NCBI GenBank assembly: GCA_002418835.1
Contig: DIEX01000034.1
Coordinates: forward strand, 225,926 to 289,925
Source: Spirochaetia bacterium UBA5763
GTDB taxonomy: Bacteria > Spirochaetota > UBA4802 > UBA5550
DNA: 64,000 nucleotides
Reading direction: 5' to 3'
Part shown: in pieces, positions 20,241 to 22,072 of the stretch
Position numbering within the stretch: position 1 is the stretch's first letter
Layout: each line of letters begins with the position of its first letter
Program-made: the position numbers and the translations under genes
Notes under the pieces: generated by a model
Seen by the model: only the letters and a program-made list of their open reading frames with translations
The model's database searches: none
What the model was told of the DNA's origin: nothing

Positions 20241-20543
20241 TCAGCAGCATTTACCGGAGGGTCCGCTGCAGTCGCAAGTGGGCTCTGTTCCGCGAAGTAA
20301 CCCTGTGATTACAGCAGCCGCGCATCCCACTCCTCTTTTAACTATCAGTGCCCCGAATTCGCAGTTTTCAGCGCAGGCCCCGCACTCCATGCACCTGTCT
20401 GAGTTAACCGGTGCTGCTTTACGGTTTTCGATTTTAAAAACATTGTGAGGGCAGACTTCAACGCATCTTCCGCACCCTGTACATTTCTCGGCATTAAATT
20501 GGAATGTATCTGAAGCCCTGAAGTATTTCATAAGTAGCCCCAT
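20241..20543 (-). CDS. hgcB: HgcB, the 2x[4Fe-4S] ferredoxin of the mercury methylation pair
   Basis: Two CxxCxxCxxxCP motifs (CTGCGRCVEVCP and CMECGACAENCE), the conserved GVGCAAAVI segment and the C-terminal Cys pair (GKCC). The gene is overlapped by and coupled to hgcA. The probable true start is the ATG at 20531 (ATGA overlap). Confidence 0.85.
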   Translation of the reverse strand: MGLLMKYFRASDTFQFNAEKCTGCGRCVEVCPHNVFKIENRKAAPVNSDRCMECGACAENCEFGALIVKRGVGCAAAVITGLLRGTEPTCDCSGPSGKCC

Positions 20544-21697
20544 TCATATATTTTAGATATGACAAGAAGTATAGTTGATACAAAAAAACCTGCTATATAT
20601 ACAGGAAGAGAATACTTTATCTCCTTCTTAACTCCTGAAAGGCTGGTATATGTTGTTGCCCCTGTAAACTGCAATGCAATGTAAGAACTGATAAGCGTAA
20701 AGAGAATAATTACTGCTGAATAAAAGTATAAATTCACCGAGCTGAATGCACCGGTGCAATGCTCAATAATCAATAAAGCAACCGCTCCTGTAATCCCGCC
20801 TTTTACGGCAAATGATCTGAATGGTATAAACGGCAGCAGCAGCGGTGTCAGTACAGCACCTGCGGCTACTGATATAATCCCCGCTGTAATTAATGTATAA
20901 CCGGAGGTCACTGCGTCTTTAAAAATAATTCCTTCAGGCTGTAATGCTGAATATAAAAAAGCAGCCAGTATAAAATAGATTAATTTTTCCTTAATCATAT
21001 TTATTTCCATAGGTATAAGAACAGCCCTGTCTTTCATAGTGAACTTCACAAGCCTCATCTCTTCATCAGCAGTGTATCCCTTCTCAATATACTTCTTAAT
21101 GTCATCAGCCCTTACCGGCCCGTAGCTTAACCTGAACCCGGTGTTTCTTCGCACTTCCGCCGCATTGATGCCGGGAGCTCCAAGCTGCGGGAGTATGAGT
21201 TTTCTATGCTCAACATATTTTTTAATGTCTGTAAGCTTTATTCTTCTTATGAGTTCATCAGTACCGAATGTTCCCTTGCCGGCTGCGCACCATACATTGA
21301 TCCCTGCTGTATCAAGCACAAGTATCCATGCGTTCATTCCCTCAAGAGCTTTGCGGAGATGATCAAAACTGAGCCTGTAATTTGCTGTTACAAATATATC
21401 TGACGAGGAGACTGGACTCCCGACCGCATAAAGTCCCGGTTTAAGAGAAAACTTCATTCTGAAAGAGGATGTCCTTGCCCGGATGTGTCCGATACGTTCT
21501 GATAGTTTTATCTCTGTTGACACCTGCGGAACAGGACCTGCGGGTGTATCAATAAGACCGGCAAACCATGTCTCATTTTTTAATTCATCAGCAATATCTG
21601 CCGGAGTAATGTTTTTTACAGGGGGGCATCCGCATTCAGATGCACGAATTACAGGACTCAGAGGGGGCAGTTTTTTTTGCACAGGTTCAAATTTCAT
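20528..21697 (-). CDS. hgcA: HgcA, the corrinoid protein of mercury methylation
   Basis: It contains the diagnostic cap-helix motif NVWCAAGK (GINVWCAAGKGTFGT) inside a CFeSP-like corrinoid-binding domain, followed by a C-terminal multi-TM domain. Confidence 0.9.
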   Translation of the reverse strand: MKFEPVQKKLPPLSPVIRASECGCPPVKNITPADIADELKNETWFAGLIDTPAGPVPQVSTEIKLSERIGHIRARTSSFRMKFSLKPGLYAVGSPVSSSDIFVTANYRLSFDHLRKALEGMNAWILVLDTAGINVWCAAGKGTFGTDELIRRIKLTDIKKYVEHRKLILPQLGAPGINAAEVRRNTGFRLSYGPVRADDIKKYIEKGYTADEEMRLVKFTMKDRAVLIPMEINMIKEKLIYFILAAFLYSALQPEGIIFKDAVTSGYTLITAGIISVAAGAVLTPLLLPFIPFRSFAVKGGITGAVALLIIEHCTGAFSSVNLYFYSAVIILFTLISSYIALQFTGATTYTSLSGVKKEIKYSLPVYIAGFFVSTILLVISKIYEWGYL

Positions 21698-22042
21698 TCA
21701 GCAGCAACCTTTTTTGTTATCAGATTTCATTTTAACTATTAAAGATGAAAGAGAATCCATCAATTCCATCATCTCTATATATTTCTCTTTATTGATGCAA
21801 TAGCATGATCTCGGCCCGTCGATCTCCCCTGTAATGAGCTTTGCTTTTTTCAGCTCTTTCAGGTGCTGGGACACGGTGGATTGTGCAAGGGGTAGTATCT
21901 CAACAATCTCTCCGCAGATACATCTGTCCTGTGAGGCTAAATGCTTTAATATGGCAATCCTCGCGGGGTGAGATAGCGCCTTCGCGTATTCAGAGAGATT
22001 TATCTCCTTGTCTGAATATATTTCATCTTTTCTTTTTGTCAT
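21698..22042 (-). CDS. arsR: ArsR-family regulator immediately upstream of hgcA
   Basis: HTH sequence (LSHPARIAILKHLASQDRCICGEIVEILPLAQSTVSQHLKELKKAKLI) with the CxC metal-binding motif in helix 3 and a C-terminal GCC. It is adjacent to hgcA (21697). Confidence 0.85.
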   Translation of the reverse strand: MTKRKDEIYSDKEINLSEYAKALSHPARIAILKHLASQDRCICGEIVEILPLAQSTVSQHLKELKKAKLITGEIDGPRSCYCINKEKYIEMMELMDSLSSLIVKMKSDNKKGCC

Positions 22043-22048
22043 AAATCC

Positions 22049-22072
22049 TTTTATCGTATGTTTACGATAAAA
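22049..22072. promoter_or_regulatory. 10-4-10 perfect palindrome TTTTATCGTA-TGTT-TACGATAAAA directly upstream of the arsR-hgcAB start. It is a candidate ArsR operator.
   Basis: Perfect dyad symmetry beginning 7 nt upstream of the arsR ATG on the minus strand. Confidence 0.5.

Follow-up and report, generated by a model that had tools for sequence, protein, structure and literature searches.

The 64,000-nucleotide (nt) stretch of DNA analysed here (the window) comes from Spirochaetia bacterium UBA5763 (contig DIEX01000034.1, positions 225,926 to 289,925) and carries an arsR-hgcA-hgcB operon on its minus strand, headed by a perfect inverted repeat (the dyad). Our analysis makes it likely that this operon of an uncultured Spirochaetota bacterium is controlled by a repressor of the ArArsR type acting on the dyad, and that arsenite (As(III)) and methylarsenite (MAs(III)) would be its inducers. 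The first gene, arsR (21698-22042, minus strand), encodes a 114-amino-acid (aa) ArsR/SmtB repressor with the six cysteines of the ArArsR type; hgcA (20528-21697, minus strand) encodes the 389-aa corrinoid protein for mercury methylation with its C-terminal membrane domain, and hgcB (20241-20531, minus strand) a 96-aa ferredoxin with two [4Fe-4S] clusters. The genes are tightly packed: the ATG of hgcA directly abuts the TGA stop codon of arsR (a gap of 0 nt, as an earlier note on this DNA had stated), and the ATG of hgcB at 20531 overlaps the hgcA stop codon by 4 nt as ATGA.

The dyad, its putative promoter and the regulator type

An inverted-repeat search placed the dyad at 22048-22073, where it reads CTTTTATCGTA-AACA-TACGATAAAAG on the minus strand, i.e. 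a perfect 11-4-11 repeat with the core ATCGTA-N4-TACGAT that ends 5 nt short of the arsR ATG. The earlier note had described a perfect dyad upstream of arsR with a 10-4-10 arrangement; its perfection and its location stand, and only the arm length needed correction. By itself the palindrome is only mildly unusual, and no more than suggestive. Under a first-order Markov model, about 0.26 perfect inverted repeats with arms of at least 11 nt and a spacer of at most 8 nt are expected per 64 kb, versus three in the window. The significance of the dyad comes instead from comparative evidence. The two other perfect repeats, also with 11-nt arms, lie at 1867-1890 and 42304-42328, have spacers of 2 and 3 nt respectively, and may be terminators.

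To assemble the comparative set, a genome scan (one genome per species) was run with the ArsR protein, which gave 80 loci, and an exact-protein look-up added six more. We analysed the 81 non-redundant loci of this clade, which come from Spirochaetota, Bacteroidota and Ignavibacteriota and total 608 kb. The sequence ATCGTANNNNTRCGAT, with at most one mismatch, was present in all 81 of them, and the clade core is ATCGTA-N4-T(A/G)CGAT. In 65 loci the operator lay within 150 nt upstream of arsR; in 15 it lay about 648 nt upstream, ahead of a co-oriented gene for a 205-aa methyltransferase that precedes arsR (e.g. locus L005), and in one it was at -243. Just one additional site was found across all 608 kb of clade loci. 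When a position weight matrix (PWM) was applied to 375 kb of sequence from 80 independently collected hgcA loci it returned three sites, all of them upstream of hgcA, and the same matrix returned none in shuffled sequence. The operator was also found upstream of arsR in the Desulfobacterales-type loci L160, L168 and L167 and in HGW-Spirochaetae-1 (L169), and this cis-element is conserved across four phyla.

The identity of the regulator comes from a comparison with ArArsR, the repressor that heads the ArarsRMC operon of Arsenicibacter rosenii SM-1 (Zhang, Wu, Huang and Zhao, mLife 2025, PMC11868830). In DNase I footprinting and electrophoretic mobility shift assays, the latter with a 27-bp probe, ArArsR protects the sequence 5'-TTTTATCGTAATATTGCGATCACAATC-3', which starts TTTTATCGTAATATTGCGAT (PMC11868830). 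The first ten bases of this footprinted site are those of the left arm of the window dyad, and the site fits the clade motif at 12 of 12 specified positions; because of these matches we take the dyad to be the operator of an ArArsR-type repressor, and its role as the binding site of the window ArsR is strongly supported by the sequence comparison. The suggestion in the earlier note that the dyad is a candidate ArsR operator was therefore borne out, since the core lies upstream of arsR orthologues and coincides with the ArArsR footprint.

The proteins themselves agree with this assignment. The window ArsR has Cys41, Cys43, Cys80, Cys82, Cys113 and Cys114, and ArArsR has Cys41, Cys43, Cys80, Cys82, Cys107 and Cys108 (PMC11868830), i.e. 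both have six cysteines, with four at the same positions and a C-terminal CC pair. All six, together with the recognition helix PLAQSTVSQHL, are invariant in the clade alignment (A1). ArArsR senses As(III) as well as MAs(III), the response to As(III) requiring Cys41, Cys80 and Cys82 and the response to MAs(III) requiring Cys41 and Cys82 (PMC11868830). By analogy, As(III) and methylarsenite are the predicted inducers of the window ArsR. The termini of ArArsR (GenBank OR208258) as read from primers (MGVTKTE... and ...DTFTPNNCC) are consistent with Bacteroidota members of the clade.

The two systems share further features. In both, arsR is the first gene, ArArsR being autoregulated and the window ArsR presumably so; in both, the site overlaps the promoter, and the A. 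rosenii site, TTTTATCGTA-ATAT-TGCGAT, agrees with the window dyad in the first 10 nt and in the ATCGTA-N4-TRCGAT core. They differ in that the window dyad is perfectly symmetric, with TACGAT in place of TGCGAT and with 11-nt arms, and in that arsR is followed by hgcA and hgcB in the window but by arsM and arsC in ArarsRMC. The window ArsR is 114 aa long whereas ArArsR has 108 aa, and the window comes from an anaerobic Spirochaetota bacterium whereas the host of ArArsR is an aerobic member of the Cytophagaceae. Immediately ahead of arsM, the A. rosenii sequence, as given by primer ArarsMC-R-F in the supplement of PMC11868830, also holds ATCGTATTATTACAAT, a copy of the operator with one mismatch that the authors do not discuss. 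This copy, lying between arsR and arsM, may represent another binding site of ArArsR.

The arrangement in ArarsRMC is the common one. Apart from the hgcAB loci, the clade comprises 77 loci from Chitinophagaceae, other Bacteroidota and one member of the Ignavibacteria, and in 69 of these arsM lies directly downstream of arsR, in most cases with arsC after it and at times with arsN2 and acr3 as well. Downstream genes were checked on examples, which scored 365 and 357 bits against the arsenite methyltransferase model NF008823 (cut-off 263), 148 bits for ArsN2 (cut-off 125) and 443 bits for ACR3 (cut-off 283). In the genome scan hgcAB followed arsR in Spirochaetota loci only. Far from being specific to hgcAB, the regulator and its operator form the usual control module of arsR-arsM(-arsN2-acr3-arsC) operons in Bacteroidota and Ignavibacteriota; in the window operon, hgcAB occupies the arsM position. 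Neither this arsR-arsM module nor the kinship with ArArsR had been recognised in the earlier note.

A sequence search of the PDB with the window ArsR gave only remote ArsR/SmtB structures (YgaV, PagR, NolR, CgArsR, CzrA and SmtB; best E-value 3e-7). R773 ArsR and the window ArsR have the ArsR/SmtB winged-helix fold in common, Cys41 and Cys43 align with Cys32 and Cys34 of R773, and both would repress through an imperfect or perfect dyad at their own promoter. However, the Type 1 As(III) site of R773 consists of Cys32, Cys34 and Cys37, whereas the window ArsR has no equivalent of Cys37 and is predicted to use Cys80 and Cys82 of the beta-hairpin, and the R773 operator is unrelated in sequence to the window dyad.

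The dyad is embedded in a putative promoter, a feature absent from the earlier note. A -35-like hexamer, TTGACT (22072-22077, minus strand), recurs unchanged and in an identical register in each of the six Spirochaetota arsR-hgcAB promoters; with its last two bases (C22073 and T22072) the 11-nt left arm of the dyad begins. When these six promoters were aligned (A3), conservation was limited to TTGACT and the dyad, with none further upstream. The candidate -10 element is GATAAA (22050-22055, minus strand), 16 nt past TTGACT and within the right arm of the dyad; the Spirochaetota relatives have GATAAT or GATATA at this place. The A of the arsR ATG is 8 nt downstream of this putative -10 element, a distance that suggests that the arsR-hgcAB transcript may be leaderless. 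In loci L160 and L168 a TTGACA-17-TATTAT promoter extends into the left arm of the operator, and in L150 the operator overlaps a TTGACC-17-TATCGT promoter. The operator overlaps the core promoter in every lineage, and a bound repressor should therefore block RNA polymerase.

Two observations concern the operators of Bacteroidota. Firstly, the operator centre there reads TATATTTG, with TTTG about 20 nt upstream (in Chitinophagaceae, e.g. L016:3940-4000), which we take to be the -7 (TAnnTTTG) and -33 (TTTG) elements of Bacteroides promoters; these elements would account for the conservation of the spacer and of the G of TGCGAT in Bacteroidota and for their variability in Spirochaetota. Secondly, 23 Bacteroidota loci have two operators 45-65 bp apart upstream of arsR, at about 100 nt (L006, L025, L026, L028-L031, L033, L034, L038, L039, L048, L056, L058-L061, L066, L067, L069, L071, L073 and L075).

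Proposed mechanism and alternative explanations

In the mechanism that we propose, an ArsR dimer would bind the 11-4-11 dyad at its ATCGTA-N4-TACGAT core. Since the dyad covers both the spacer and the -10 region of the TTGACT promoter, the bound repressor would occlude RNA polymerase and silence arsR along with hgcA and hgcB, which are translationally coupled. As in ArArsR, the expected ligands would be Cys41/Cys80/Cys82 for As(III) and Cys41/Cys82 for methylarsenite; binding of either arsenical would release the repressor and allow the operon to be transcribed, and HgcA (the corrinoid methyl carrier) and HgcB (the ferredoxin reductant) would then methylate Hg(II). We infer derepression by As(III) as well as by MAs(III) from the behaviour of ArArsR together with the invariance of the ligand cysteines.

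Several points weigh against this mechanism. The expression of hgcAB is low and largely constitutive in the models studied. In a metagenome sample of 61 hgcA loci with more than 300 nt of upstream sequence, the module occurs in only three to five loci. The proposed -10 element GATAAA is weak, and a scan for the sigma-70 consensus did not flag the TTGACT promoter, the -10 candidate having no terminal T; because the scan missed it, the assignment of the promoter rests on conservation. The orthology with ArArsR rests on the cysteine numbering, the primer-read termini, the arsRM context and the operator. ArArsR was assayed with arsenicals only (PMC11868830), so that Hg(II), Sb(III) and Cd(II) are other possible thiophilic inducers. 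Finally, the passages in which Gionfriddo et al. (2022/2023, bioRxiv 10.1101/2022.10.17.512643) cite earlier work describe hgcAB expression as not regulated by Hg.

One alternative is that the dyad acts as an RNA hairpin, i.e. as an intrinsic terminator on the plus strand or as a 5' stem-loop that masks the ribosome-binding region of arsR. The terminator scan does list the dyad on the plus strand, as an 11-bp stem followed by TCAATGTTTT, and either strand of the region would fold, at about -12 kcal/mol (z-scores between -5 and -6). However, the stem has only three G-C pairs, and transcription probably starts in the right arm or past it, which would give an RNA without the full stem. No plus-strand gene runs into the dyad, and the sole neighbour on that strand, the tRNA-Gln(CTG) gene (22242-22314), which lies just past the arsR promoter and is divergent from it, is downstream and points away. 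Across the 81 clade loci the arm sequences (ATCG...CGAT) are invariant, without covariation, and the spacer is variable in sequence but fixed at a length of 4 nt; this combination is the signature of a protein-binding site and not of an RNA hairpin. In addition, the homologous site is bound by purified ArArsR (PMC11868830). The terminator reading was rejected because there is no incoming transcription and because it is the arm sequence, not covariation, that is conserved, and we consider a hairpin function of either kind highly improbable.

If the dyad is instead a protein-binding site, the mechanism could still differ from the one proposed here in what is regulated or in what induces it. It is conceivable, if unlikely, that ArsR autoregulates only itself and that hgcAB is expressed constitutively from an internal promoter, in which case arsenic would have little effect on methylation capacity. 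The low, largely constitutive expression and the indifference to Hg described above speak for this, as does a promoter-like sequence, ATGACA-16-TATATT, at 22042-22015, inside the 5' end of arsR. This internal match is not significant, however (three promoter-like sites were found, against 6.9 in shuffled sequences), and the contiguity of arsR and hgcA and the 4-nt overlap of hgcA and hgcB leave no intergenic room. In Pseudodesulfovibrio, moreover, arsR shares a transcript with hgcA, and arsenic induces hgcAB (bioRxiv 10.1101/2022.10.17.512643), and in L150 (see below) an operator lies upstream of hgcA with no intervening arsR, which is sensible only if the operator controls hgcA. Quite unlikely, in our view, is a regulator that binds the dyad but is induced by a soft metal, Hg(II) or a different one, or by a metabolite, e.g. 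S-adenosylhomocysteine (SAH), and so is a metal- or methyl-cycle-responsive switch. Cysteine-rich sites bind Hg(II) and Cd(II) avidly. According to Gionfriddo et al. (bioRxiv 10.1101/2022.10.17.512643), a four-cysteine site could prefer Zn, Cd or Pb, and treatments that raise SAH had some effect; the limitation of the ArArsR assays (PMC11868830) to arsenic species leaves room for such inducers. Against this, Cys41, Cys80 and Cys82, the As(III) ligands, do not vary, the 69 arsM-containing operons among the 77 non-hgcAB loci usually carry arsC as well, with or without acr3, the window locus lies beside genes for ACR3 and ArsP, and the absence of regulation by Hg in the earlier work cited by Gionfriddo et al. 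tells against Hg(II) itself. Control of the whole operon by an arsenical-responsive ArArsR-type repressor remains the reading that we prefer.

Gene products and genomic neighbourhood

The family assignments of the operon are clear. HgcA scored 402.6 bits against the NCBIfam equivalog model NF040863 (cut-off 275) over residues 56-383, corresponding to profile positions 1-324 of 325; as nearly the whole profile is covered, the alignment includes the C-terminal membrane domain, and the C-terminal half of the translation is hydrophobic when read by eye. HgcA also matches Pfam CdhD. The earlier note had recognised HgcA by its cap helix NVWCAAGK and a C-terminal transmembrane domain, and both parts hold: the motif is present and fits the family pattern N(V/I)WCA(A/G)GK, its cysteine, the cobalt ligand, being residue 137 on re-inspection, and is invariant in an alignment of 37 sequences (A2), and the NF040863 alignment continues through residue 383. 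HgcB scored 112.2 bits against the equivalog NF040864 (cut-off 99; profile positions 2-93 of 93), so that both proteins exceed their family cut-offs. Its first ferredoxin motif, CTGCGRCVEVCP, has C17-C20-C23-C27 followed by P, and its second, CMECGACAENCE, has C47-C50-C53-C57 followed by E; the claim of two CxxCxxCxxxCP motifs and a terminal CC is thus right for the first motif and for the terminal pair (Cys95-Cys96), but the second motif ends in CE, not CP. HgcB also has an internal Cys70. The longest hgcB open reading frame (ORF) spans 20241-20543; the true start is probably the ATG at 20531, as in the gene calls of the relatives L081-L086 (96 aa, 4-nt overlap). ArsR scored 71.1 bits against the ArsR/SmtB model NF033788 (cut-off 55) and matched Pfam HTH_5 (44.8) and HTH_20 (45.7). 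The closest relatives bearing names are Spirochaetota metagenome-assembled genomes (MAGs). From the equivalog matches of HgcA and HgcB it may fairly be inferred that the organism is a mercury methylator.

Some features of HgcA lie outside these assignments. A CGC motif is present at residues 22-24, about 30 residues ahead of the conserved domain, and CxC or CC occurs at a similar N-terminal place in 31 of the 37 HgcA homologues sampled (A2); the N-terminus of L024 HgcA (SCGCG...SCCGD) is similar to the cysteine-rich N-terminus of ArsM. This vicinal cysteine motif may be a hand-off site for a metal or metalloid. The protein cluster (90% identity) to which the 389-aa window HgcA is assigned is represented by a 49-aa 'FrmR family transcriptional regulator', which looks like a database clustering artefact and not like biology.

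On the other side of hgcB the operon converges on two plus-strand genes that the earlier note had also identified: one for an ACR3 arsenite efflux transporter (17495-18571; TIGR00832, 402.2 bits, cut-off 282.8) and one for a 549-aa fusion of coenzyme A disulfide reductase and rhodanese (CoADR-rhodanese; 18586-20235; Pfam Pyr_redox_2 and Rhodanese; TIGR03385, 460 bits). The CoADR-rhodanese gene converges directly on hgcB, with 5 nt between the stop codons and no terminator, and the same convergent neighbour is found in L081-L086, L002 and L093, whose HgcA proteins are 48-83% identical to that of the window. The conservation of this convergence suggests a functional or transcriptional link. An assignment of the 549-aa flavoprotein as MerA was rejected, since it scored 150.5 bits against TIGR02053 (cut-off 454) and its best match is CoA disulfide reductase. 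In agreement with the absence of merA and merB claimed earlier, the NCBIfam scan gave no match to MerA or MerB among 38 window proteins, about 18 window ORFs lying outside the scan.

Further arsenic and thiol-redox genes precede these. The cluster of ArsR, permease, thioredoxin and CcdA genes described in the earlier note is present and begins at 12626 with a second arsR (12626-12970), followed by genes for an ArsP permease, Thioredoxin_3, a DGC-domain protein, thioredoxin, DsbD_TM/CcdA and RseC. Its first part (12626-15562; second ArsR, ArsP, a MamS-like 142-aa ORF, Thioredoxin_3 and DGC) has the gene content of arsR5-arsP-arsE-DGC (DND132_2311-2314) of Pseudodesulfovibrio mercurii ND132. A PWM scan of the window gave no ArArsR-type operator at the second arsR or upstream of ACR3. 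With the matrix built from the clade sites, the dyad, at 29 bits, was the sole site of at least 10 bits in the window, and a pattern search for a second operator with up to three mismatches gave only a weak match, at 52542. Since the window holds this one operator only, neither the ACR3 nor the ArsP cluster nearby belongs to its regulon, and both must be under separate control. Upstream of arsR, past the tRNA gene, there are minus-strand genes for a 77-aa Se_S_carrier/DUF3343-like ORF (22335-22568), the selenium-metabolism protein YedF (22565-23170), a double-cubane-cluster reductase (23272-24438) and its activase of the acyl-CoA-dehydratase type (24457-25218).

Distribution of the module and relation to known systems

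In the sample of 61 hgcA loci, the canonical operator was present in three: the spirochaete locus L093, L160, in which the order is arsR, a 116-aa ORF and then hgcAB, and L150. In two more, L133 and L145, the ArsR is a related one and its site a symmetric variant, GTCGTA-N4-TGCGAC (GTCGTATGTTTGCGAC). The ArArsR-type module is a minority, lineage-specific solution to the control of hgcAB. The L150 operator, TTTTATCGTCGATGTACGATAAA (L150:2677-2702, 23.6 bits), lies about 183 nt upstream of hgcA, whose start is at about 2860-2890, and no arsR was found in the 2.8 kb upstream of this hgcA; an operator without arsR in cis therefore implies control in trans by an ArsR encoded elsewhere. The hgcA-linked ArsR proteins of L145 (2614-2973), L133 (same region) and L144 (616-987) keep Cys41 and Cys82 but have lost Cys43 and Cys80, and in L133 and L145 the recognition helix is altered to PLSRTTVSQHL. 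By analogy with the ligand requirements of ArArsR, these three may be MAs(III)-selective regulators of hgcAB.

In a neighbour-joining tree of the ArsR clade, the hgcAB-linked proteins of Spirochaetota were grouped and those of Desulfobacterales were separate, which suggests that hgcAB was recruited more than once; the tree, built on about 110 aa and with no support values, cannot settle the number of times. A wider scenario, which we put forward tentatively and hold to be rather doubtful, is that Spirochaetota, Desulfobacterales and one or more further anaerobic lineages had hgcAB inserted into the arsM slot of an ancestral arsR-arsM operon, with the arsenic-sensing repressor and operator kept. 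The selected role of HgcAB would then be arsenic-induced, corrinoid-dependent arsenic methylation or detoxification, or defence against methylarsenite, and mercury methylation would be a side reaction. Arsenical control as the purpose of the arrangement would agree with two observations, an operator without arsR in cis in L150 and ArsR proteins in L144 and L145 that have kept just the MAs(III) ligands Cys41 and Cys82.

An arsR-hgcAB system has been studied in P. mercurii ND132, in which ArsR2 (DND132_1054) is co-transcribed with hgcAB, hgcAB is induced by arsenic, and ArsR2 has a four-cysteine motif at positions 47, 49, 86 and 88; an operator, palindrome or promoter is not mentioned for it (Gionfriddo et al. 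2022/2023, bioRxiv 10.1101/2022.10.17.512643). As in the window, arsR lies immediately upstream of hgcAB and co-oriented with it, the gap to hgcA being 0 nt in the window, and the CxC-36-CxC spacing is the same (47/49/86/88 versus 41/43/80/82). In ND132 co-transcription and arsenic induction were demonstrated experimentally, whereas the window is compared with it by cysteine spacing and gene order, and ND132 has no ars genes adjoining hgcAB whereas the window locus abuts the ACR3 and ArsP clusters. A link between the window ArsR and the Pseudodesulfovibrio regulator of hgcAB is plausible on this comparison. A search for homologues that started from the Desulfobacterota-type ArsR of L160 gave proteins of Desulfobacterales and not of Desulfovibrionaceae.

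Spirochaetes MAGs with arsR adjoining hgcAB, including HGW-Spirochaetae-1, are listed in Table S4 of the same study (bioRxiv 10.1101/2022.10.17.512643), and ArsR-like genes and arsM near hgcAB were noted by McDaniel et al. (PMC7438021). HGW-Spirochaetae-1 (PGXY01000003, our L169) has the gene order of the window, an ArsR that is 59% identical and the same promoter architecture of TTGACT plus dyad. It differs from the window in having no converging CoADR-rhodanese gene and in having a MazE/AbrB-like gene (3692-3940) immediately upstream of arsR-hgcAB. The other candidate regulator of hgcAB in the literature is a 'TA-associated' prlF/mazE-like gene (PMC10349881), and in this genome both candidates therefore stand side by side.

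The locus does not reveal a new kind of system. The arsR-hgcAB arrangement in Spirochaetes has already been published, as has the operator of the ArArsR type of regulator. The operator has not previously been pointed out for the Spirochaetes arsR-hgcAB loci, and no paper linking ArArsR to hgcAB was found in the literature searched, so that this link appears new. What is new, then, is the recognition of ArArsR-type control and arsR-hgcAB control as the same system, the position of hgcAB in the arsM slot, and the conservation of the cis-element over four phyla.

Two questions have long stood open in mercury biogeochemistry: how hgcAB expression is controlled and which function HgcAB really has. 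The analysis joins two lines of work, i.e. that on the ArArsR sensor of arsenic-methylating Bacteroidota, with its footprint and ligand mutants, and that on the ArsR-like regulator of hgcAB, and it provides a concrete cis-element, ATCGTA-N4-T(A/G)CGAT, that can be searched for in the genome or metagenome of any methylator. It leads to the prediction that in these lineages the methylation genes are switched on by arsenite or methylarsenite and not by mercury, and that at sites co-contaminated with arsenic and mercury the output of methylmercury may be transcriptionally coupled to arsenic.

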